From: Psammoneis japonica
Taxonomy: Eukaryota
DNA length: 20,000 nucleotides
Direction of reading: 5' to 3'
Assembly (NCBI GenBank): GCA_008632985.1
Contig: QPGO01000222.1
Span: 49,205 to 69,204, forward strand
Positions within the stretch are counted from its first letter, which is position 1, and each line of letters starts with the position of its first letter. Below the pieces are notes generated by a model. It had not been told where the DNA came from, searched no databases, and saw only the letters and a program-made list of their open reading frames with translations. Below, in pieces: positions 1-20,000 of this stretch. A program made the position numbers and the translations under genes.

Positions 1-700
1 CAATGCAAGGCATCTTTTGAGCAAAAGGCTGATCAGCTCTTCCCTGTGGGCCAAGCATTTGCAAGTTGTGCCCAACTGGCAAAGGCTGCAAAGCTTTTTT
101 TGGACATGTGGGGTGTCATGAGTTGTCACAAGCAAAAACGAGTAAATTGTTTCCACTCTGTGAGCACCAAGAAAAGCAAAAGAAAGGCTCAGCCGCTTGC
201 TGAGAACTCCAGCAGTCGCAATGTGGGCCCATCCTTGAAAAAGCAATGCAAATGCCCACTTCACATTGAGCACAGTTTTGTGAGGAAAGTCAAGGATCCA
301 TTCACAGGAAAGGTTTGGCCTGACATGTTTTGCAATGTCAAGATGACAGGTGCCGTGTACAAACACACGTGTGACCTCCACACGGTTTCCCATCGAGTGG
401 CAAAGCAAGCAAGTGGCTCAATTCAACCGAGCTCAGAGGGGCTCCAAAGCACCATTGATGATCTCAGGCTTGAACCTTGCATGAAAGCCGAGGATCTGCG
501 TCCAAAGCTCCTCAAGCATTTGCCGTTGCACATCGGATGCAAAATTCATCAGAACGCAAAATTCATCAGCAACTTTCGCAGCCTTGTCAGCAAATGGACA
601 TTGCAGCATGAGGAAGACAAAGAGGGTGTTGTGTGAAGATCTGCAGCAACTTGCATCAAAGCACCCCATTGCATCAGATGAACTTGTTGTGCCAACCTTT
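1..700 (+). mobile_element. Degenerate Mutator/MULE-like transposase N-terminal fragment (FAR1/WRKY-GCM1-type Zn-finger region), running in from the window edge
   Basis: Frame 1 is open from base 1 to 636 (..LFPVGQAFASCAQL..W..; CKCPLHIEHSF..PDMFCNVKMT..YKHTC). The CxC...HxC spacing resembles MULE-associated Zn fingers from recall, not from a search. The reading continues frameshifted after ~625 (LCEDLQQLASK). No DDE domain is visible. Almost no TpA, with excess Cys/His. Confidence 0.45.
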
Positions 701-779
701 GGCATCAGATGGTGTCAGCATGCATGCTGTGCAAGCCCCGTTTGGCACCTTCAACATTCCATGGGTGGAGAAGTGGCAG

Positions 780-1380
780 TTCCAGCAGCAGCAGGTGCAG
801 TGCAAAGTGCCTTTCTCACAGCCTGACTGGTGCTGTGTCCCCTTCTTGTCACCCGACTGTAGAAATTGCAGTGGCAGCAGCAGAGGCTCTTGCAGCAGCA
901 GCAGCCAGTGGCAGTTGTTGCCCCACCAGAGTGGCAAGTGACAACAGCCACAACTGCAGTTGCAGCAGCATTCACAGCGGGAGTGCCGCAGTGATGCCCT
1001 GTCCCCTTCTCATCACCCAGCTGGTGCCGCACCCCCTTCCAGCCACACAACAATCTGAGTGGCCATGGGGACAGATGTCAATGCAAAACAAATGGGTTGA
1101 GAAAACAAAGAAAGAGAGTCAGCGCTGAGAATGTGTGTGAGATGTCCACCACAGCACTGCACCTTGTCCCCTTGTTGTCCTCAACCAACCAAAGGAATCC
1201 CTGTCCACAGCAGTTGCAGCTGCAGCAGCAGTCACATCAACAGCAGTCACAGCAACAGTTTTCGCCCCCCCACAAGAGTCGCAAGTAAAAACAGCCACAG
1301 CAGCAGCTGTGGCAGCAGTTGCAGCAGCAGTTGCAGTGGCAGCACCACATCCCCTTCTTGTCACCCAAGAGTTGATGCAG
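780..1380. repeat. Degenerate CAG/GCA-rich tandem repeat region, period about 165-185 bp
   Basis: A tgtccccttcttgtcaccc-like motif recurs near 836, 1000, 1165 and 1348, separated by (gca)n/gcagtt runs. Confidence 0.6.
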
Positions 1381-2130
1381 AGAGTGCGTGCTGGATGTGC
1401 TCACCATGGAGCATGAGATGGAGATTCAGAGACAACAAGCAACAAGCTGGGTGCGCGCACAAATTCTGCCTCTGCAAGAAGCCATTGAGAAATGCAGCAG
1501 TGCTGGAAGAGAGAAACAGCATCAAAGACAGCACACTCACTCACCAGAACTCGCCAGTTCAACAACATTGTCGGCAGCAGCAGGGAAAAACACTCCAAAC
1601 ACACCAGCCAGCCAAAAGGAGTGAAAACACCAGAAACTCCGGAGGTGCAAACAAACAAACACCAACATCTCACTCAGCGTGCATTGGCTCCCACCCACAC
1701 AGTGTCATCCCAGTGACATTCAATTTATGAACGGGGCCAAGTCTCCACAATGCTGCAGTGCTGTTCTCAGCGAGCGATGACTTGGACGACGCTTCCAACT
1801 GCCGTGTGTGCTGTGTGCCGGGCATGCGCTTGTGTTGACGCGTGTTTTTTTTTTGTTCTTTTCGCGGTGCTCGACAACACTGCATTATTATGGCATACAA
1901 GCACAGTTACGTCTCGTACACATGATGCGATTTATGCTTTTATATAATTCTGAAAATGTCAGGTAATGATGATGTCGTTTGCAATCTTCAGGACCTCATA
2001 AATCTGAATGCATAATGCACTGACCAAGCGTCTGGCCGTGGGGAGTTTGGGGCGGGAAAATTCGAGAACCTGATGGACGACAGACGTGGTGCGGATTTGG
2101 TGCGCGCGCGCGGAAGTCCGTGGTGCGGAG

Positions 2131-2259
2131 TTAGACTCTACCGGTACTCTCTACTCTATCTCTAGCTAGTAGCTACAAGGAGTACGGTAGAGAGTAGCTA
2201 GCTAGAGAGAGTAGAGAATATAGAGAGTAGCTAGCTCTAGCTAGAGTAGAGAGTAACTC
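2131..2259. repeat. Low-complexity TAG/CTAG/AGAGTAG tract with imperfect inverted symmetry
   Basis: Left arm actctctactctatctctagctag is complementary to right-arm ctagctagagagagtagag units; very TpA-rich. Confidence 0.75.
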
Positions 2260-3060
2260 TCATGAGGAGCCAAGGTTTCGTTCCGGCGCACCAAGATGCC
2301 CGGAGAAAGATGCGAGCTGACAACCAACGACGCAAGGATTTTGCACATCTCTGAAGGGAAGACAGAGCATTGTCGTTCAGACCTGAGCTGGGTCCAGAGG
2401 ATGAGGGTGGTCCCAAACATTGTGCTGGCACATGACATCGGAGAGTTTCTCAATGCTTCGGTCAACACCTGTGCCGGCATGCAGCGGTGAACTCACTGTG
2501 CCGCTTGTCCGTCCTGAGAACCCAAGCATTGACATTCCCCTCAAGGAATGATGGTTTTCCGGTCTTTGTGGGGACCCACGCGGAACTTGACAGTGAAGCT
2601 TCTTTTGATCGTCATGATTGCTTTCATTGGATGCTGGGCAGGCTGTGCGACGGCTTCGCGATAATGACACTGTCGTTGACCTGTGGCGAGCCCAGCTTTT
2701 CGCATGTTGTTTCCCAAGATTGACTTCGTTTTTCTTGCACGATGTCGCGCTTGTTGCAAGGTATCTTGGATTCAATGCCGACGCATCGGAAGCACGGCCT
2801 TGCCTTCCAGTTGAAACAGTTGGTGACACTCCCCCGAAGTGGGACGACACGACTCCAATCTATCTACGCGCAACCATTCTTTGTTTTCGAGACACTGTTG
2901 AGTACGGTAATTTCATCCCGGTGAATGTCTACGTCACATTCGAACTCGTGATATGCTTGTATCATCTTTCTAGTTAACCTTTTCCAAGATATGTATCACA
3001 CGAAGATCGACACTCGAGCTGTTGCACCAAGTAATTCACTCATAACGTCAAAAGAAAACA

Positions 3061-6882: not shown

Positions 6883-8546
6883 ATGATGCTTCAGCCACGA
6901 CGAAGCAACATTGTACTTGCCCTTATTCCAATGATGCCACCAGCGTTGTTGTTGGCTCGGCAGCTACCGGCGAATCCCTTGCCGATTTTCGTCGGGTGGA
7001 TTCGCTTTTTCATGAGCAGCTCTTCTCGTGTGGGAAACGACAAGGATGCCATTCCACCCGTAGAGTCACAGCTCTTGGCATACCTCACCATGGCTGTACT
7101 CGGATACATTGCTACAAACAACTTGGTACCGAAAATAAAGGTAAGAGGCTGATTGAGTACTCTACTGTTTTTTTTTGTTTGCTCTGACCTGAAGCAAAGC
7201 GCAAAAACTGAACTTTGTTTTGTTCCAACTTGAACTACTTAGGCCTATACATTACGAAAGGGTATATCAGGAAGGGATTTGGGGAAAACGTGGGACTTCC
7301 ATTGCAGATAAGGAAATGTAAGGGCAACATCCAGACATGGGATCTTACTCGGTTGTTGTCTCGTTCTCCATCGCGAAACGTATTTTTTGCTCAGAGCTTT
7401 GCCTCTTTTGTTTTCAACAGACCGGAAGCTCTTGGCATTGTCCCTGGTGCAATATTTCTTATTTGTCTAATTGTCTGCCTTGTTGGATATGCCACATCTC
7501 ATCCCGACAAGGTAAGCATACGAAAGAAAAAGCAAAGGCCGTTGTCCTTTTTCTTGAAAGAATATCTGATGTAACGTCTCTTTTTGTAGTTGCTGGACTG
7601 TAATTCAGCACTGCTCTCCATTTGCTTTATGCTATTCCTGGGCTTTACAGACGACGTCTTGGAATGGCCTTGGCGATACAAGTTGCTCTTGCCCTTTTTT
7701 GCATCGCTGCCTCTCCTTTGTTGCTATGACGGTAGCACCACAATTGTCATTCCCATTCCACTCCGTCAATTGCTGGCAAGTGATGGAAACTTTACCTTAC
7801 TCGGTGCAATTCTAAGAGACCACTTTTACATGCCAGCCGATGGGTCCAATATTGATTTGGGACTCTTGTATAAGCTTTACATGTTGGCGCTTTCTGTCTT
7901 TTGCACCAATGCAATCAATATTTACGCCGGCATTAATGGATTGGAAGCTGGTCAATCGTTTGTCATTGGTTGCGCCGTGCTTGTACATAACTTGATGGAG
8001 ATATCGTTGCACGACCGAAACGATCGAATCCGGGAGAACCACTTGTTTTCTTGCATGACCATGCTGTCCTTTGTGGGAGTCACATTGGGATTGTTGCGAC
8101 ACAATTGGTATCCGGCCTCCGTCTTTGTGGGGGATACGTACTGCTACTTTGCAGGCATGACCTTTGCGGTGGTGGGGATATTGGGGCACTTCAGCAAGAC
8201 TCTGCTCTTGTTTTTCATTCCGCAAGTACTCAATTTTGTATGGTCGGTTCCTCAACTCTTTCGATTTGTACCGTGTCCAAGACATCGATTGCCCCGTTTG
8301 AATGAAGAGACGGGTCTCATGGAAGCGTCAACGTTTCCTTGTGAACCACATCAATACAAGCTACTCAAGAAGAAACCGGACGACACGGCAGTTCCAAACA
8401 TGACTGTGATTAATCTATGTTTACAACTATTTGGGCCAATGAATGAACGAACACTTTGCATTGTGCTCTTGGGATTTCAAATATTATGTTGTGCCTTTGG
8501 GCTCTTCCTGAGATATCGCATTGCACAGTACGTATTTGAAGAGTAA
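6883..8546 (+). CDS. DPAGT1: UDP-GlcNAc:dolichyl-phosphate GlcNAc-1-phosphotransferase (exons 6883-7140, 7243-7317, 7421-7511, 7590-8546)
   Basis: Motifs [63 protein letters not shown] and CPRHRLP. Three GT-AG introns (7141-7242, 7318-7420, 7512-7589). Exon 2 is 75 nt where 74 is needed, implying one extra base in ggggaaaac at ~7285. Confidence 0.95.
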
Positions 8547-8595: not shown

Positions 8596-8990
8596 CATTA
8601 CGGGACGGAAGCAGCGTCTCGCAGCAGATATACCGGACAGCCCTATGGTACCTAGCTAGCTATATTGTAGTAGAGATCTGGCATTCTACCCCGCTAAAGT
8701 GAATTCTGTTTCCACCACACAACCTAACAAACAAAGCATACATGCCACCAATCGTTGGTCATCTTTCTGCTTAACTGCTTCTCCAGTTCATTACGAGACG
8801 GAAGCAGCGTCTCGCTGCAGATGTTCCGGACAGACCCTACCTATGGTACCTACTAGCTAGCTACATAGTAGTAGAGTTCTGGCATTCTTCTTCACTAAAG
8901 TGAGTTCTGTTTCCACCGCACAACCTAATACAAAAAGCATAGATAGCACCAATCGTTGCTTATTTTTCTTCTAAACTGCTTCTCTAGTAC
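8596..8990. repeat. Diverged tandem duplication (~195 bp x2) between the convergent DPAGT1 and glutaredoxin 3' ends
   Basis: cattacgRgacggaagcagcgtctcgc...ctaaagtgaRttctgtttccacc...caccaatcgttg...aactgcttctc starts at ~8596 and again at ~8790. Confidence 0.9.
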
Positions 8991-10090
8991 TTTCTCGATT
9001 TCGTTGCTGTACCCCACTGCTTGAGCAACTCCTCCAGTTCTCCGTTTTCTTCCATTTCCTTGAGGATATCTAAACCACCAATCAAGTCTCCCTCGACGTA
9101 AAGTTGCGGGGTAGGTTGGCCAATCAGAGTACTTCTTAAGCCCTTGGCGTACTTCTTCATCCTCCAAGATATTGAAAGAATCGTAACTGGCACCGTGCTT
9201 GTCCAACAACTCAACGGCCTGTCGCGAGAAACCACATTGAGGCGCAGACGGCAGGCCCTTGAGAAAAAGCATGATACGATGCCGCTTTACGAGTTTGCTC
9301 AAGCGTTCGTCCAGTGATTCCTCCTCTTGCTGACTTGGTGCACCACTAGAGCCACCTGCTTGTTCATCAACTCCAAGCTGAGCAGCTAGATTACCGCTCT
9401 CGGAATCCTCCATCATTTCCTTGACGATATCCAATCCACCAATCAACTCGCCATTGACATAAAGCTGCGGATACGTCGGCCAATCTGAAAACTTCTTTAA
9501 CCCTTGACGGACCTCTTCATCTTGCAATATATCAAAAGATCCAAACTCGACCTGGTTTTCTTGCAACAACTCACAATTTGCCGTGAAAAGCCACAACGAG
9601 GAGCCGTTGGATTGCCCTTCATGAAAAGCATCACGGTTGTACTAGTCGTCAAGCGCTTCAACTTGTCATTCAGATCCTCTTTTTCTTCAGTCAGAGCAGC
9701 AGCTGGTGCAGCATTTGAAGGTGCGGCCATGCTGTTTGTGCTGCCGTTCTTGATTCTTTCCTCCAATGCCTTGACTGCTTGCGTGACGAGCGCGACATCT
9801 TCGACCCCATCTAGTTTCTGTACTAGCGTATTTGTAGACGAATCCAAAAGACACACGGTAGGAATCACAGTGACGCCCAGTTCTTGAACCAAGTCAGGAC
9901 ACGCTTCAGCCTCGACACGGCCGAATTGAATGCCGGATGACGAAATGGATGCGAGCGCCTGCATCACACTGTAGATATCGCCGCCCTCAACCGATCCGTC
10001 GTGCCATGATGCGCCAAAGAGTAGCACAAGACCACCGGTGACAGGTGGTGGTAGCTCTGAAATGTCAACGAGACGAGACGAAGAAGACAT
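8984..10090 (-). CDS. GLRX3: Multidomain monothiol glutaredoxin (thioredoxin-like domain + two CGFS Grx domains; GLRX3/PICOT/Grx3-4/GRXS17 class)
   Basis: N-terminal Trx-like region (LLFGASW...FGRVEAE..P..V..IPT), then [37 protein letters not shown] and [37 protein letters not shown]. Apparent 1-bp loss at ~9572 and 1-bp gain at ~9110. Confidence 0.93.
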
Positions 10091-12798
10091 AATGATGTTG
10101 TGCTCTCTTTGGGGTTGACGATGGATTCGTTCTTCCTTTATTCTTTATTTTGTCTTTGTCTTGTTTTGTCTCACGCTTGCTCTTGCTCTCACGCGAGAGA
10201 AATCGAAATAAATTTTCGCCTGCCCATCGCCCGCTTCGGGTTGTTTCATAATGTTGTTTTTGGCGATCGGACATTTTGGCAACAGTTGTCTAGTATGATA
10301 TTCTCGTATGTTTCTACGATGAACCCGATGTCACAAAAAATCAAACCCACTCGTGTTTGAAACTTGAAAACAAGGTCTCTTCACGCAAAAACCACACAAT
10401 CTCACGATGCTTTCAATCACATCCACAATGTCCAAACAAACAATGAGATACAACCTTTCTTCCCGCACCGTTCCAATGGAGAGCATGGGGCGTGCTCGCA
10501 TGAGCGTCGGCGACAAACGCAGCAGGCTGTTGACCGAAGACGAGGTTTCCCGCGACATGAAGCTTTCGACAAGCGGACGTCCTTCGAAACGTCTCCAATG
10601 GCAGTCATCGGTTCAGTTGAGCGTCATTCCAAGCAAACACGATGCCTCCGATGTGTGCTTGCTGGACGAATTGACAAGCATTGATGCATCCTCAACAACA
10701 TCCGAGCATGAATCACGACAAGGCATTTCGAAACCATCTCGTCTGGAAGTTCAGCCGGAGCTTTCAGACTGGTCACCGACATGCTTGGGTTCAGACGAGT
10801 CGTCATCGCTACTCCGATGTTACAATGAGCACTCTCAGCACGATCACTTTGCAAGCATTGTGCAACAGATTGCCAGCCAGTCTTCAAGCGAATGCCTGTT
10901 CATCGATCCGAGTTCTGGTCACAAGAGGATGTTGCGGCACACATGCAGTGCGGAACTTGGTTCACGCAAACGTCGTCGGACTTCCAACAAGCAAGATGAT
11001 GAGGTCGTTCTTGTTGGTTCCAGTCACGAGGAGACTTGTGACAACGGAAACAATCATCTGGCATTCGGCTGGGGTCGCCCAAAGCCTTGCTCATGTGTGA
11101 ACCACATCTGCTTTCCTCGCACGCGTCGAGACCTCCACCCAAAGACTGTCCGTGCCCCGAGGAAACGCCGCATGGATGAGCACTCCAAGCCTGACCATTC
11201 ATTGCACGTCATGGAGAAGCTGTCTGTTCAAGAATCATCGAATGAACGTTTCACAGACACCTTCTCCGGTGACAAAAGGAAGCATCAGCGCAGAGGGTTG
11301 GGTTCTCGGAAACGACGCATTGTCACACGTGATCAAGATGACGCATGCGGTGGCATTGCCGGCAGACTCAGCGCTGGTCCTGAGGAGAGCAGTCAGAGGG
11401 TGAGTCATTTTGTCGTTTGCATTGTCACTCCTTTTCGTTGACAATTGACCAAAACCTGTTTCTACTTCTACTTTACTCTCTACAATCACAGCTTGCACCT
11501 GACACATCGAGTCAACACGAGACATCTTCCGTTGCGTCTGTTGCGGCAGAGAATCCTCTCGATGCGATTCTTTTAGATGATGATCACGTCCAAGAGGTGA
11601 CGGTTCCTGCAGCGGCGAGTGCGGTGCAAGATGACCCTTCCGATTTCGATGCGTTTGGTCCAGATCATCACAATGACTTGCACGAAGTGTTGATTGGTGA
11701 ACAACAATTGGAAGGGTCTCACTTGCCTGCTTCGGACAAGGATGGTCCCTTCCACAATGTGGCATCAGCAATGGCGGTGCCTTCGGCGTGCGAGGTTCCG
11801 TCTGACGATGAGGCTTCCGTTCCAAACCAACACAATGGCGTGCCTGAAGCCTTGGGAGAAGATCGAGAAGAAGAAGAAGAAGAAGGGCATGTCGAAGTGC
11901 GGGAATCCCTCACTGCGGATCACCGTGCTTTTAACAGCGACGATCCTATCCACGAGACGGCGTCAGCAGTGGTGGCACCTTCGCCACAAGAGATCCCTTC
12001 CGACGAAGGCAATGAGCGCATTCCAGACCAGCACGTTGGTGGAGACGGGTTGATGGTGGAGACGGAACAGGCAGAAGATCAGCACGCTGTTTCACCCACA
12101 TCCCTCATTACGGATTCCGTCATTCCAAGGCGGTCTGCTTGGCTCAAAGAAGCTGTGGGAAGCGTGCATGTCCTCTCTGCTCATGGGAGAACTGTTCGAA
12201 GGTCCGCTAGAATCTTGAACCGGCGACATGGCACCGTGGGGTAGTTCGAGTGCTTGAGGGAACGAAGAAATACATGGGAAGAGAGAAAAGTGGTAATTAG
12301 AGATAGAGAGAAAGGAGCGGGAGTTAGAGAAAGGGAGTGGAGCATTTAGAAAAGAGAGAAAAGGAATCGGGGAAATGGCGAGGCGGGACGAAGACTGGGT
12401 TCGGAAAGGACTGTAGGCAGCAACACTCACACTTGCTTTTGTTTGCTTCACCAGTTCCAAAGGGAAGAATTGAGTCTGGCGGCGGGTTTTCTGACCATGT
12501 GCTGGATCCGTGTGCATGAATCATCATGGTGCAGTTGCTTTTGTGATCGTGTCGATCGGCAAGTCTCGGGTGAGCAGCGACATTCTATCGAGTACAGAAT
12601 CTTCGTGGCGCCTGCAGTTCGGCCCACATTACACACAACACGTACCTTTACATTCAACACTACGGATTCAGCTTTGTGGGGGATTGAAAACTCAAAGCCC
12701 GATTCGATGATTCCTTTTTGGGCCTGAACAAGCACCATTGGCCGTGGACAGTGTGCTGCTTGCACCGTAGACGGATTCAGCATTGGTTTTGCGTGAAG
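9976..12798 (+). repeat. Segmental duplication copy A (TpA-poorer copy; runs into the assembly gap)
   Basis: Colinear and near-identical to 16104-18945, from tatcgccgccctcaacc to ggttttgcgtgaag. Confidence 0.97.
10407..12244 (+). CDS. Orphan, probably disordered ~581-aa protein, copy A (exons 10407-11399 and 11492-12244); may be non-functional
   Basis: Two long ORFs are joined in frame by a phase-0 intron 11400-11491 (GTGAGT...CACAG). Basic clusters (RKRRRT, RKRR), an acidic region and C-terminal RRSA/RRSAR motifs. No recognisable domain. Confidence 0.55.
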
Positions 12799-13736
12799 NN
12801 NNNNNNNNNNNNNNNNNNNNNNNNNNNNNNNNNNNNNNNNNNNNNNNNNNNNNNNNNNNNNNNNNNNNNNNNNNNNNNNNNNNNNNNNNNNNNNNNNNNN
12901 NNNNNNNNNNNNNNNNNNNNNNNNNNNNNNNNNNNNNNNNNNNNNNNNNNNNNNNNNNNNNNNNNNNNNNNNNNNNNNNNNNNNNNNNNNNNNNNNNNNN
13001 NNNNNNNNNNNNNNNNNNNNNNNNNNNNNNNNNNNNNNNNNNNNNNNNNNNNNNNNNNNNNNNNNNNNNNNNNNNNNNNNNNNNNNNNNNNNNNNNNNNN
13101 NNNNNNNNNNNNNNNNNNNNNNNNNNNNNNNNNNNNNNNNNNNNNNNNNNNNNNNNNNNNNNNNNNNNNNNNNNNNNNNNNNNNNNNNNNNNNNNNNNNN
13201 NNNNNNNNNNNNNNNNNNNNNNNNNNNNNNNNNNNNNNNNNNNNNNNNNNNNNNNNNNNNNNNNNNNNNNNNNNNNNNNNNNNNNNNNNNNNNNNNNNNN
13301 NNNNNNNNNNNNNNNNNNNNNNNNNNNNNNNNNNNNNNNNNNNNNNNNNNNNNNNNNNNNNNNNNNNNNNNNNNNNNNNNNNNNNNNNNNNNNNNNNNNN
13401 NNNNNNNNNNNNNNNNNNNNNNNNNNNNNNNNNNNNNNNNNNNNNNNNNNNNNNNNNNNNNNNNNNNNNNNNNNNNNNNNNNNNNNNNNNNNNNNNNNNN
13501 NNNNNNNNNNNNNNNNNNNNNNNNNNNNNNNNNNNNNNNNNNNNNNNNNNNNNNNNNNNNNNNNNNNNNNNNNNNNNNNNNNNNNNNNNNNNNNNNNNNN
13601 NNNNNNNNNNNNNNNNNNNNNNNNNNNNNNNNNNNNNNNNNNNNNNNNNNNNNNNNNNNNNNNNNNNNNNNNNNNNNNNNNNNNNNNNNNNNNNNNNNNN
13701 NNNNNNNNNNNNNNNNNNNNNNNNNNNNNNNNNNNN
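12799..13736. other. Assembly gap (938 N)
   Basis: Run of N. Confidence 1.
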
Positions 13737-15244: not shown

Positions 15245-16103
15245 CCAACTGCCTCGAACAATGTGTGAATGCAGCTACTCGCGCAATGGTTCTTCCCAGT
15301 GCAAAGCTAGCAGACTCGAGGCATTGCACAGTTGAGGATTTGAGCTTTGGAAGTTGCTTGAAAAGATTGAGCTCGATGCGTCGATTCAGAATCATCAAAA
15401 GCGGTATCAACGCCACGCATTGTGACACAGCCGTCCCAATTGCCACGCCCGCAGCTCCCCAAAGAATCAAAATGGGGTTCAATGCTATGTTCACTGCGTT
15501 TCATAGTATACTGCAAAGCAGCGGTGTCTTTGTATCACCAAGTCCTCAAAGGTGACAGACAATTTCAGAAGTTAGCTGGTCGGGATAGCAGCGCATAACA
15601 ACATGATCTTTCGTCCTTGCTTAGATTGGGCCAGCTCTTTGGAGTACCTACCACGAAATACACTGTTGGAAACAAGCCACAAGGTTGATACAGGTGCATC
15701 AAGAGCCCGAGCTCTCATGTAGGATATGGCAGTCGCTGCCATATCACTATCTTTCGATACGCCCATGGCGCTCAGGATTTGTCCGGCAAAAGCAGCGAAT
15801 GCAAACAACTGAAGCAATCCCACTACGAGAGCCAACAGCAAGGCTGTTAAAAGTGCTGCTGAAAGTTCTTCTGTATAGATCATAAGACGGATATGGGCAA
15901 ATGCTTATTGTTAGGTCAAGTTCAAACGTAACAACTCACGAGACAGCATTGCACGCAATACGAACCTGCTTCTGCTTTGCTCGCCTTGCTGCCTCTATAA
16001 GCCCCATACTTGGATGCAATGAGCGAAATTGTTGTTTTTGACAAGGGAGAATTGTATAGCTTGGAAACAGCAGCTTGTGATGCTCGTGCCACTCCCACAC
16101 CAC
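15245..16103 (-). pseudogene. MATE-family (DinF/DTX-like) transporter pseudogene, truncated at both ends
   Basis: GVGVARASQAAVSKLYN; ALLLALVVG..A..YMRARAL.AP; VFRG-LGDTKTPL; NIALNPIL..GAAGVAIGTAVSQ; LGRTIA. Introns at 15871-15965 and ~15545-15651. In-frame TGA at 15501-15503. Similarity ends near 15250. Confidence 0.85.
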
Positions 16104-16218
16104 TATCGCCGCCCTCAACCGATCCGTCGTGCCATGATGCGTCAAAGAGTAGCACCAGACCACCGGTGACAGGTGGTGGTAGCTCTGAAATGTCAACGAG
16201 ACGAGACGAAGAAGACAT
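16104..16218 (-). pseudogene. Duplicated 5' fragment (~38 codons) of the glutaredoxin gene
   Basis: [38 protein letters not shown] is near-identical to the translation of 10090-9976. Confidence 0.95.
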
Positions 16219-16560
16219 AATGATGTTGTGCTGACGATGGATTCGTTCTTCCTTTATTTTGTCTTTTGCCTGCTCTTGCTCTCGACTCCTCTCGACATGA
16301 GACAACGCGAGAGAAATCGAAATAAATTTTCGCCTGCCCATCGCCCGCTTCGGGTTGTTTCATTATTGAAAATATCTCCTTAAGTCACGGATAACGGTAT
16401 ATTTCATTGCTTAAATGTTGTTTTTGGCGATCAGACATTTTGGCAACAGTTGTCTAGTATGATATTCTCGTATGTTTCTACGATGAACCCGATGTCACAA
16501 AAAATCAAACCCACCGTTTTCAAACAAGATCTCTTCACGCAAAAACCACACAATCTCACG

Positions 16561-18396
16561 ATGATGCTTTCAATCACATCCACAATGTCCAAACAAACAA
16601 TGAGATACAACCTTTCTTCCCGCACCGTTCCAATGGAGAGCATGGGGCGTGCTCGCATGAGCGTCGGCGACAAACGCAGCAGGCTGTTGACCGAAGACGA
16701 GGTTTCCCGCGACATGAAGCTTTCGACAAGCGGACGTCCTTCGAAACGTCTCCAATGGCAGTCATCGGTTCAGTTGAGCGTCATTCCAAGCAAACACGAT
16801 ACCTCCGATGTGCACTTGCTAGACGAATTGACAAGCATTGATGCATCCTCAACAACATCCGAGCATGAATCACGACAAGGCATTTCGAAACCATCTCGTC
16901 TGGAAGTTCAGCCGGAGCTTTCAGACTGGTCACCGATATACTTGGGTTCAGACGAGTCGTCATCGCTACTCCGATGTTACAATGAGCACTCTCAGCACGA
17001 TCACTTTGCAAGCATTGTGCAACAGATTGCCAGCCAGTCTTCAAGCGAATGCCTGTTCATCGATCCGAGTTCTGGTCACAAGAGGATGTTGCGGCACACA
17101 TACAGTGCGGAACTTGGTTCACGCAAACGTCGTCGGACTTCCAACAAGCAAGATGATGAGGTCGTTCTTGTTGGTTCCAGTCACGAGGAGACTTGTGACA
17201 ACGGAAACAATCATCTGGCATTCGGCTGGGGTCGCCCAAAGCCTTGCTCATGTGTGAACCACATCTGCTTTCCTCGCACGCGTCGAGACCTCCACCCAAA
17301 GACTATCCGTGCCCCGAGGAAACGCCGCATGGATGAGCACTCCAAGCCTGACCATTCATTGTACGTTATGGAGAAGCTGTCTGTTCAAGAATCATCGAAT
17401 GAACGTTTCATAGACACCTTCTCCGGCGACAAAAGGAAGTATCAGCGCAGAGGGTTGGGTTCTCGGAAACGACGCATTATCACACGTGATCAAGATGACG
17501 TATGCGGTGGTATTACCGGTAGACTCAGCGCTAGTCCTGAGGAGAGCAGTCAGAGGGTAAGTCATTTTATCGTTTGTATTATCACTCCTTTTCGTTGACA
17601 ATTGACTAAAACCTATTTCTACTTCTACTTTACTCTCTACAATCACAGCTTGCACCTGACACATCGAGTCAACACGAGACATCTTCCATTGCGTCTGTTG
17701 CGGCAGAGAATCCTCTCGATGCGATTCTTTTAGATGATGATCACGTCCAAGAGGTGACGGTTCCTGCAGCGGCGAGTACGGTGCAAGATGACCCTTCCGA
17801 TTTCGATGCGTTTGGTCCAGATCATCACAATGACTTGCACGAAGTGTTGATTGGTGAACAACAATTGGAAGGGTCTCACTTGCCTGCTTCGGACAAGGAT
17901 GGTCCCTTCCACAATGTGGCATCAGCAATGGCGGTGCCTTCGGCGTGCGAGGTTCCGTCTGACGGTGAGGCTTCCGTTCCAAACCAACACAATGGCGTGC
18001 CTGAAGCCTTGGGAGAAGATCGAGAAGAAGAAGAAGAAGGGTATGTCGAAGTGCGGGAATCCCTCACTACGGATCACCGTGCTTTTAATAGCGACGATCC
18101 TATCCACGAGACGGCGTCAGCAGTGGTAGCACCTTCGCCACAAGAGATCCCTTCCGACGAAGGCAATGAGCGCATTCCAGACCAGCACGTTGGTGGAGAC
18201 GGGTTGATGGTGGAGACGGAACAGGCAGAAGATCAGCACGCTATTTCACCTACATCCCTCATTACGGATTCCGTCATTCCAAGGCGGTCTGCTCGCTTAG
18301 AGAAGCTTGGGAAGCGTGTATGTCCTCTCTGCTGATGGGAGAACTGTTCGAAGGTCCGCTAGAATCTTGAACCGGCGATATGGCACCGTGGGGTAG
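16561..18396 (+). CDS. Orphan protein copy B (exons 16561-17556 and 17649 onward)
   Basis: Intron 17557-17648 (GTAAGT...CACAG). Indels near 18290-18310 shift the frame to a stop at 18335; the stop equivalent to copy A is at 18394-18396. Confidence 0.55.
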
Positions 18397-18920
18397 TTCG
18401 AGTGCTTGAGGGAACGAAGAAATACATGGAAGAGAGAAAGTGGTAATTAGAGATAGAGAGAAAGGAGCGGGAGTTAGAGAAAGGGAGTGGAGTATTTAGA
18501 AAAGAGAGAAAAGGAATCGGGGAAATGGCGAGGCGGGACGAAGACTGGGTTCGGAAAGGACTGTAGGTAGTAACACTCATACTTGCTTTTGTTTGCTTAC
18601 CAGTTCCAAAGGGAAGAATTGAGTCTGGCGGCGGGTTTTCTGACCATATGCTGGATCCGTGTGTATGAATCATCATGGTGCAGTTGCTTTTGTGATCGTG
18701 TCGATCGGAAGTCTCGGTGAGCAGCGATATTCTATCGAGTACAGAATCTTCGTGGCGCCTGCAGTTCGGCCCATATTACACACAACACGTACCTTTACAT
18801 TCAACACTACGGATTCAGCTTTGTGGGGGGTTGAAAACTCAAAGCCCGATTCGATGATTCCTTTTTGGGCCTGAACAAGCACCATTGGCCGTGGACAGTG
18901 TGCTGCTTGCACCGTAGACG

Positions 18921-20000
18921 GATTCAGCATTGGTTTTGCGTGAAGTACTTGATGACCTTGAATAACTCTACTAGTCCGGAAGTTTTCTGTTGTGGTTTCA
19001 AGTAATCTGTGAATGTGTTAGGATATTAGCACATGGCGAGTTTTGAAGCTAACTGTTTTTTCGAATACATGATGAAAGCTCGTACCTTTATACTCATTCT
19101 GTAGGGTTTGTTTATTCAGCGTGTAGTCCAACAAGCATCAACTTTGTCCAACAGTTCTCGCCTTTTGTAGTTTATGTAGTTCGGTCTTATTGGTCGCTGC
19201 TCCCACCTACTGCATCGAAATTGACGAGAGTCGGGAACCCTTTGCAAATGAACACTAAGGACTCTTCAGAGCGAGATCAATCGTCTTGACCGCAGAGATA
19301 GCATGTAATGAGACTGGTAGCGATTAGTGGCGTATGGCTGCGGATAATCTGTGTGAATGTGTTATGAAATTAGGCATATGGCGAGTTTTGAAGCTAATCG
19401 TTTTTCAAATACATGATGAAAGCTCGTACCTTTACACTCATTCTGTAGGGTTTGTTTATTCAGCGTGTTGTCCACCGATTCAGCATTGGTTTTGCGTGAA
19501 GTACTTGATGACTTTTAATAACTCTACTAGTCGGGAAGTTTTCTGTTGTGGTTTCAAGTAGTCTGTGAATGTGTTAGGATATTAGGCACATGGCGAGTTT
19601 TGAAGCTAACTGTTTTTCGAATACATGATGAAAGCTCGTACCTTTATACTCATTCTGTAGGGTTTGTTTATTCAGCGTGTAGTCCAACAAGCATCAACTT
19701 TGTCCAACAGTTCTCGCCTTTTGTAGTTTATGTAGTTCGATCTTATTGGTCGCTGCTCCCACCTACTGCATCGAAATTGACGAGAGTCGGGAACCCTTTG
19801 CAAATGAACACTAAGGACTCTTCAGAGCGAGATCAATCGTCTTGACCGCAGAGATAGCATGTAATGAGACTGGTAGCGATTAGTGGCGTATGGCTGCGGA
19901 TAATCTGTGTGAATGTGTTATGAAATTAGGCATATGGCGAGTTTTGAAGCTAATCGTTTTTCAAATACATGATGAAAGCTCGTACCTTTACACTCATTCT
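18921..20000. repeat. 556-bp tandem repeat (at least 2 units, continuing beyond the window) with an internal ~125-bp sub-repeat
   Basis: gattcagcattggttttgcgtgaag occurs at 18921 and 19477. The subunit gtgaatgtgtta...atggcgagttttgaagctaa...gatgaaagctcgtaccttta recurs near 19005, 19345, 19560 and 19900. Confidence 0.95.

Follow-up and report, generated by a model that had tools for sequence, protein, structure and literature searches.

A one-sided TpA versus CpA/TpG difference between two copies of an orphan-gene segment in the diatom Psammoneis japonica: a candidate case of localised hypermutation

The DNA considered here is a window of 20,000 nucleotides from the diatom Psammoneis japonica (contig QPGO01000222.1 of assembly GCA_008632985.1, positions 49,205 to 69,204 of the forward strand), and all coordinates given below are those of the whole window. 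Its central feature is a direct duplication of about 2.8 kb, whose copies A and B (Table 1) were aligned with MAFFT (9901-12900 against 16001-19050) and carry a putative two-exon orphan gene. At 40 sites within this segment copy A presents CA or TG where copy B presents TA, and at no site is the reverse found. A preliminary description, made from the letters of the window alone, had taken this as a candidate "reverse-RIP" system, that is, hypermutation of TpA to TpG or CpA between duplicated segments, opposite in direction to fungal repeat-induced point mutation (RIP). The duplication includes the 5′ end of the thioredoxin-glutaredoxin gene (9976-10144), which makes copy A the parental locus and leaves copy B with a fragment of that gene. 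Since copy A ends at a run of N, the tandem order of A and B depends on the scaffold join. No further copies of the segment were found by blastn within the window.

Between the two copies there are 62 substitutions and a few indels, with C in copy A for T in copy B at 27 positions, G for A at 21, and differences of other kinds at 14. Sorted by dinucleotide, 23 sites read CA in A and TA in B and a further 17 read TG in A and TA in B, giving the total of 40, against none of the reverse class in which A would carry TA and B would carry CA or TG (binomial 0/40, P=1.8e-12). CG outcomes are absent from the TA sites. The aligned duplication holds 78 TA dinucleotides in B and 38 in A, all 38 of the latter being common to both copies, and outside the TA sites the divergence between A and B is only about 0.5%. 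Context statistics were taken over a core of 10640-12630. Read from B to A, changes in this core affect 40 of 123 TpA-context bases compared to 2 of 856 other A/T bases (Fisher P=1e-36), and 40 of the 42 A/T-to-G/C transitions lie on TpA, a context that accounts for 123 of 979 A/T bases. Read from A to B, the changes affect 41 of 322 C/G bases in CpA/TpG context and 1 of 702 others. Among CpG-context bases just 1 of 243 is changed, with an observed/expected (o/e) ratio for CpG of 0.95-1.03 in both copies, and CA and TG outcomes follow one another in random order along the molecule (20 runs against 20.6 expected, P=0.49). The roughly 40 one-way differences that had been read by eye are thus reproduced in number and coordinates by exact counting, and the accompanying statements withstand the same analysis: the change is strand-symmetric and confined to one dinucleotide, the decay of 5-methylcytosine (5mC) at CpG is not its source, and a DNA-level process is indicated rather than one-strand RNA editing of a retro-copy, given that both kinds of outcome are interleaved and that a putative intron is both kept and changed.

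All 40 differences fall within one tract, outside which the shared TAs of the duplication are unchanged to the left (0 of 12) and to the right (0 of 5), whereas 40 of the 61 within the core are changed (P=4.6e-7); no TA change occurs in the leftmost 670 bases of the duplication. Within the tract the differing TAs are clumped (runs test P=0.007), such that all 18 of 18 consecutive TAs differ over 10944-11457, and the TAs kept in both copies include four in the pyrimidine tract of the intron and 7 of the 9 located at 12227-12347. The o/e ratio for TA is 0.17-0.18 in copy A, 0.46-0.51 in copy B and 0.51-0.61 in unique DNA, with values of 1.41 for CA and 1.22 for TG in copy A. Other repeats in the window display no comparable excess of TA versus CA/TG differences. 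This 40:0 one-sided, TpA-specific, strand-interleaved and bounded pattern is real and far beyond chance.

The tract spans a region from about 240 bases past the start codon of the putative gene to about 380 bases past its stop codon, with the promoter-side TAs spared. Neither copy has its reading frame interrupted, except that indels at about 12140-12160 shift the frame of B near its end. The predicted protein of copy A contains 2 Tyr and 31 His among its 581 residues, and that of copy B contains 7 Tyr and 26 His. Among coding TA changes 8 of 27 are synonymous compared to an expected 31%, a share near expectation and hence without sign of selection on coding sites; the intron and the 3′ flank also carry TA differences. 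A polarity test based on stop codons, in which 29 of 299 RIP-able coding-sequence sites (9.7%) would be stop-making and 0 of 27 hits are so (P~0.06), proved uninformative.

The orphan status of the gene rests on several searches. A Pfam scan of all 89 open reading frames (ORFs) of at least 80 codons in the window matched none of those in the duplicated segment or in the two TA-free islands described below. Matches above the curated cut-off were confined to the glutaredoxin, glycosyltransferase, RsmB/Nop2 and MatE-like ORFs, with one thioredoxin match plus a few others below it. Exon 1 of copy A has no homologue in a near-length search or in a library of 1.84 billion representatives, and in the JGI (Joint Genome Institute) metagenomes it returned only L001, a chance-like match of 22 residues without DNA similarity. 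For exon 1 of copy B, no relative was found in IMG/VR.

Table 1. Features of the 20,000-nucleotide window that bear on the TA versus CA/TG differences
Feature	Position	Strand	Remarks
TA-free, CA/TG-rich, CpG-poor island	1-1726		5 TA in 1726 bases; o/e TA 0.05, CA 1.82, TG 1.85, CG 0.26
TA-rich spacer between islands	1727-2254		35 TA in ~370 bases
Second TA-poor island	2255-2860		2 TA in ~600 bases; TA o/e 0.09
Thioredoxin-glutaredoxin gene	8928-10144	-	Thioredoxin part and two glutaredoxin domains
Copy A of the duplicated segment	9976-12798	+	Bears CA/TG at 40 sites; 3′ end lost to scaffold gap
Putative exon 1 of orphan gene, copy A	10407-11399	+	331 codons, open; ATG at 10407
Tract with all 40 TA-versus-CA/TG differences	10643-12628		40 of 61 TAs of B differ; first site 10643/4, last 12627
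Putative intron	11400-11491	+	GTGAGT...CACAG; 6 of 10 TA positions differ, the other four (pyrimidine tract) the same
Putative exon 2	11492-12244	+	Stop codon 12242-4
N run (scaffold gap)	12799-13736		Directly 3′ of copy A; ~170 bases past last private letter of A
Copy B of the duplicated segment	16104-18945	+	TA at 40 sites; TA o/e 0.47-0.51, like rest of window

The segment is a multi-copy orphan family, as revealed by public sequencing runs. The data comprise Logan contigs, not reads, and contig building drops rare or low-depth variants; variants were ranked by support, and the site-level results given here derive from the best 40 of 233 rows of the variant table. Matches were obtained in two runs of one organism (X1 and X2) and, as a small share, in two sediment metagenomes (X3 and X4), with no RNA run bearing the segment among the runs matched. 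Parts of the stretch 9500-12798 are uncovered in X2 to X4. In X1, depth over this stretch is 60 on the unique flank and sums to 230-960 over the repeat, contributed by 94 contigs, of which 26 are at least 99% alike, 24 are 95-99% alike, 22 are 90-95% alike and 22 fall below 90%. The sediment data provide two contigs of 151 letters (12179-12455; 95-99% alike) that bear the majority-type letters G at 12182 and T at 12418, 12421 and 12449, so that either the segment family or an organism closely related to this one is present in those samples; the figures for X3 and X4 are identical, and the two are possibly one data set. Across the whole family, the TA versus CA/TG class dominates the variation, beyond that of A against B, and at 11932-3 and 12630-1 some contigs present TG or CA where A and B both present TA.

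Which state is the older was addressed with this contig table and not with a rooted tree of copies. Change from TpA to TpG or CpA on copy A is the direction we favour, with moderate confidence, from the contigs of other copies, the flanks of the sites and base composition. Among the best 40 of 233 rows, 19 of the 40 diagnostic sites are visible, and the letter of B accounts for the entire counted depth at 17 and for 85% at the other 2, amounting to 2 to 16 times the single-copy depth. Two diverged contigs (87-90% alike), identified by their listed ends, read TA at all 6 visible of the 15 diagnostic sites they cover. One of these (record 4; 11109-11351; depth 101) differs from A at 32 of 243 letters and has the TA state at 11148, 11205 and 11322; the other (record 7; 12201-12580; depth 240) differs at 40 of 380 letters and has the TA state at 12418, 12421 and 12499. 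As A and B are only about 0.5% apart outside the TA sites, copies of this likeness should branch outside the A/B split, and their TA would polarise the six sites as TA to CA or TG in A.

The remaining variation in X1 points the same way. Its 220 variant places comprise 44 C>T, 43 G>A, 30 T>C, 24 A>G and 79 transversions, and without the 40 diagnostic sites (44 when four other places with C or G in A and T or A in B are included) there is no excess of C>T and G>A, so that the other copies do not appear RIPed relative to A. Two sites display three states: at 10780-1 copy A has CA, copy B has TA, and a contig of depth 336 has TG, and at 10656-7 the sequence is TG in A and CA in B, with a contig that reads A at 10657 and therefore TA. 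Every state at both sites is one step from TA. A CpG ancestor was considered for them and rejected, as it would take 4 steps per site and require C>T at CpA anyway. The flanks of the 40 sites give a log-likelihood ratio of +4.1, where +4.2 is expected from TA sites and -4.5 (standard deviation 3.0) from CA sites (P=0.002).

A literature search on TpA hypermutation found a sole description, a preprint of 2026 on the chlorarachniophyte Bigelowiella natans, and none for diatoms (Mettrop et al., bioRxiv 10.64898/2026.01.13.699255). According to the available part of that text, mutation-accumulation lines acquired 231 of their 302 new mutations in two integrated viral regions, and 230 of these 231 were A>G or T>C; every one lay on TpA and produced TpG or CpA (10.64898/2026.01.13.699255). 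The main target is single-copy, and the genome contains windows poor in TpA and rich in CpA+TpG, grouped in 124 clusters, most of whose genes lack annotation. The authors propose a DNA adenine deaminase resembling ADAT2 and cite DNA editing by amphioxus BjADAT2 and Trypanosoma TbADAT2; the same part of the text makes no mention of diatoms (10.64898/2026.01.13.699255). The likeness to the P. japonica tract is close, in that TpA alone is affected, both outcomes arise according to strand, the change is local with neighbouring DNA untouched, and duplication is not needed. The differences are nonetheless several. The host there is a chlorarachniophyte, but here a diatom and thus a stramenopile; the affected regions measure 25-186 kb, compared to about 2 kb of one gene body; the target there is viral, whereas no viral or transposon origin is recognisable here; the hit rate is much higher here (40 of 61 TAs, with 18 of 18 over 0.5 kb); and the direction was seen de novo in B. 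natans but is inferred in P. japonica.

With this example at hand, the reading that we consider moderately probable is that a localised, DNA-level TpA hypermutation rewrote copy A, with copy B and the other copies of the family keeping TA. In copy A, one or other base pair of the TpA step would have gone from A:T to G:C, over about 2 kb of gene body. The adenine following T may have been deaminated by an ADAT/TadA-like enzyme, or a lesion may equally have been directed to the thymine, since TpA is self-complementary and the two routes are indistinguishable. One round on a single strand would yield only one type of outcome; the random alternation of CA and TG along one molecule would therefore call for several rounds, and a TpA once changed is no longer a target, in keeping with the lack of CG outcomes. 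The placement of the tract with respect to the gene suggests coupling to the transcription or chromatin of that unit, and targeting would be of a locus or transcription unit, not of repeats. As regards the preliminary description, its TA-ancestral direction gains from the contigs of other copies and from the flanks, with the reservation that these are a contig table and not reads or a rooted tree. The TadA/ADAT-like deaminase acting on DNA that it proposed is also the hypothesis put forward for B. natans, yet a thymine-directed lesion would serve as well. Its "repeat-induced" element lacks support, as the changes are confined to one of the two copies (40:0). TA is retained in the other family members seen in the contigs, the main B. 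natans target is single-copy, and no repeat was found within the window for the regions of its TA-free islands, all of which speak against duplication or repeat status as the trigger. Its remark that it knew of no description of the process has been overtaken by the chlorarachniophyte work.

Several observations weigh against hypermutation of copy A and temper the confidence placed in it. Run X1 contains a 0.55 share of the 31-letter words of A, and 0.549 of those words avoid all A/B differences, so that the private words of A are practically absent from the contigs and copy A is without independent confirmation; contigs do lose rare variants, and this absence does not show copy A to be unreal. 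The remaining 21 of 40 diagnostic sites are unseen, and as the rows are ranked by support, sites at which other copies carry the letter of A may be hidden. The CA states of A must in part be shared by one contig class (record 8; depth 275), which differs from A at 3 places in 12201-12435. At 11503, 11759, 12449 and 12560 the majority contigs present TA where both A and B present CA or TG, and TA content thus decreases from the majority to B to A in a series that is readable from either end. The flank test is not robust, falling to -0.01 with a smaller background and to +1.15 with local CA sites. Composition is weakened as a test of polarity by other very TA-poor ORFs in the window, which make a TA-poor ancestor not implausible. 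No enzyme of the kind is encoded in the window, as the preliminary description had also reported. The target is without viral or transposon signature in Pfam and IMG/VR, unlike that in B. natans, and an eroded foreign origin is possible.

The same differences can be read the other way round, with copy A keeping the original CA and TG, and copy B and the amplified copies having undergone C-to-T change at CpA on both strands in the usual direction of RIP; this we hold to be unlikely, if well short of negligible. The agent could be the diatom DNMT4, which is related to fungal RID and found in 31 of 60 diatom species, and CpA>TpA in duplicated DNA is an established signature of RIP, according to the part of the source available (PMC9998398). 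The multi-copy nature of the segment, the position of copy A at the parental locus and an increase in TA from A through B to the majority contigs, such as successive rounds would produce, are all consistent with such a process, as are the confinement of changes to CpA/TpG context when read in this direction and the TA-poor ancestor that the TA-poor ORFs elsewhere in the window make possible. RIP, on the other hand, mutates both copies of a duplication, whereas the split here is 40:0 and the left 670 bases of the duplication are unchanged. The six visible TA sites of the diverged contigs and the lack of a C>T/G>A excess in the other copies once the A-specific sites are removed both argue for the opposite direction, and the three-state sites would need TA>TG or TA>CA steps anyway. 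RIPed DNA is recognised by a TpA/ApT ratio above ~0.89 and a (CpA+TpG)/(ApC+GpT) ratio below ~1.03, neither of which is reached by copy B, whose indices lie at the baseline of the window, with 0.48-0.50 (0.56-0.62 in unique DNA) and 1.19-1.20 (1.34-1.44 in unique DNA), respectively.

It is improbable that copy A is simply unfaithful, be it through another sub-culture or strain, systematic miscalls at modified TpA, or a mis-built repeat copy. None of its private 31-letter words is apparently present in the contigs of X1 or X2, no counted contig has its letter at 17 of the 19 visible diagnostic sites among the best 40 of 233 rows, the sediment contigs are B-like at 12182, 12418 and 12421, and the copy stops at a scaffold gap. 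Contig building, however, loses low-depth variant paths in repeats, such that this absence would be expected of a real copy, and approximately 125 of 855 depth units do have the letter of A at 12418 and 12421. A short-read assembler would also need private variants to carry unique flank 2.8 kb into a multi-copy repeat, and the contig breaks about 170 bases past the last such variant; a TA>TG/CA artefact with random choice of strand is not known. Least probable, and very much so, is an origin without any mutator, in which weak-to-strong changes became fixed in A either through GC-biased gene conversion or because selection disfavoured UpA/TpA in an expressed gene. Read from B to A, all 40 of 40 changes are from A/T to G/C, the short bounded tract resembles a conversion tract, and avoidance of UpA in expressed RNA is known. 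Biased conversion has no context rule of the kind seen here, where 40 of 42 weak-to-strong transitions fall on TpA, and 40 changes are hardly in proportion to a background divergence of ~0.5%. The sites are struck as by chance with respect to synonymy, and the intron and 3′ flank are changed too.

Comparison with other known systems further delimits the hypermutation proposed for copy A. It shares with RIP of Neurospora and other fungi the dense transitions between CpA/TpG and TpA on both strands of duplicated DNA with spared flanks, but differs in its host, in its direction on present evidence, in the change of one copy only, and in the indices of the TA-bearing copy B, which are not raised; CA and TG alternate at random here, whereas RIP leaves strand runs. 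In common with AID and with ADAT2/3, a deaminase would act on both strands of nuclear DNA, and the ~2-kb tract that begins ~240 bases past the start codon may resemble the transcription-coupled tract of AID, whose target, by contrast, is C in WRC motifs. ADAR hyperediting followed by retro-copying also results in A>G with U or T preferred before the edited A, but it does so on one strand only, whereas 17 A>G and 23 T>C are interleaved here and the putative intron is kept, with 6 of its 10 TAs differing. The decay of 5mC at CpG enriches TpG and CpA too, but CpG is not the source here. Mutagenesis of the type driven by diversity-generating retroelements converts A to any base on one strand and does not fit.

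Two further TA-poor islands lie near the left end of the window (Table 1), and no repeat of either was found within the window. The first, 1-1726, runs past the left window edge and contains 14 ORFs of at least 80 codons in several frames, none of the 14 with a Pfam match; the one ORF tested for homologues, 1-633, has none. The five ORFs of this island that were translated are nearly free of Tyr and rich in His and Cys. The TA-rich spacer that separates the two islands holds a 33-base tandem repeat of TAGAGAG type (2188-2252). Island 1-1726 may represent a final stage of the process proposed for copy A, or it may be no more than cryptically simple sequence. The cut-offs applied to long-term traces in B. 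natans are species-specific; they would take in island 1-1726, and copy A stands at 0.17 for TA, 1.41 for CA and 1.22 for TG. A wider reading joins the two organisms, whereby diatoms and chlorarachniophytes would share a locus-targeted enzyme system acting on TpA in nuclear DNA, either by deamination of adenine or by damage to thymine. This is possible, although we think it rather doubtful. On the diatom side, such a system would act on the scale of single transcription units, approach saturation and leave TA-free islands behind, in which TAA and TAG would be lost and several frames would consequently read as long orphan ORFs whose products abound in His and Cys but have little Tyr. In this view, copy A would represent an island in the making, copy B the state before, and 1-1726 the end state.

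Further features surround the duplication. Copy B is adjoined by a minus-strand MatE-like ORF (15575-15904), and another minus-strand ORF (15925-16359) extends from the copied fragment of the thioredoxin gene into unique DNA, possibly as a chimeric gene or pseudogene. Right at the end of copy B begins a tandem repeat (18918-20000) with a 556-base unit built of related parts of 344 and 212 bases, in which the two full units differ by 1 substitution in 435 aligned bases, and the last 28 bases of copy A match 19474-19501. A second tandem duplication, of 201 bases and 83% alike (8596-8988), lies mostly just below the low end of the glutaredoxin ORF and reaches about 60 bases into it. The GT4/ALG7-like glycosyltransferase ORF (7590-8543) finds its best-matching named relatives among diatoms (Seminavis, Nitzschia and Mayamaea; 67-70% identity), which marks the host as a diatom and not a fungus.

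The segment is probably a further case of an already described TpA hypermutation, in a host group where it is new, and the before-and-after pair that it offers is unusually clean. If the direction holds, P. japonica would add a second lineage to the one with TpA-to-TpG/CpA hypermutation of DNA, and would be the first such diatom; the process would then seem old within the SAR (Stramenopiles, Alveolata and Rhizaria) group and not the oddity of one alga. The natural before-and-after pair of the same 2 kb, which the B. natans preprint lacks in its available part (10.64898/2026.01.13.699255), exhibits sharp tract bounds, near-complete conversion over 0.5 kb, random choice of strand and no selection on coding sites. 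There is also a consequence for annotation, in that two of the three stop codons disappear from TA-free islands, which thereby accumulate long spurious or orphan ORFs, as in the 14 found within 1.7 kb at 1-1726. Were the direction reversed, a RIP-like process in a diatom would provide a candidate function for the RID-related DNMT4, whose function is given as unknown in the part of the source available (PMC9998398).

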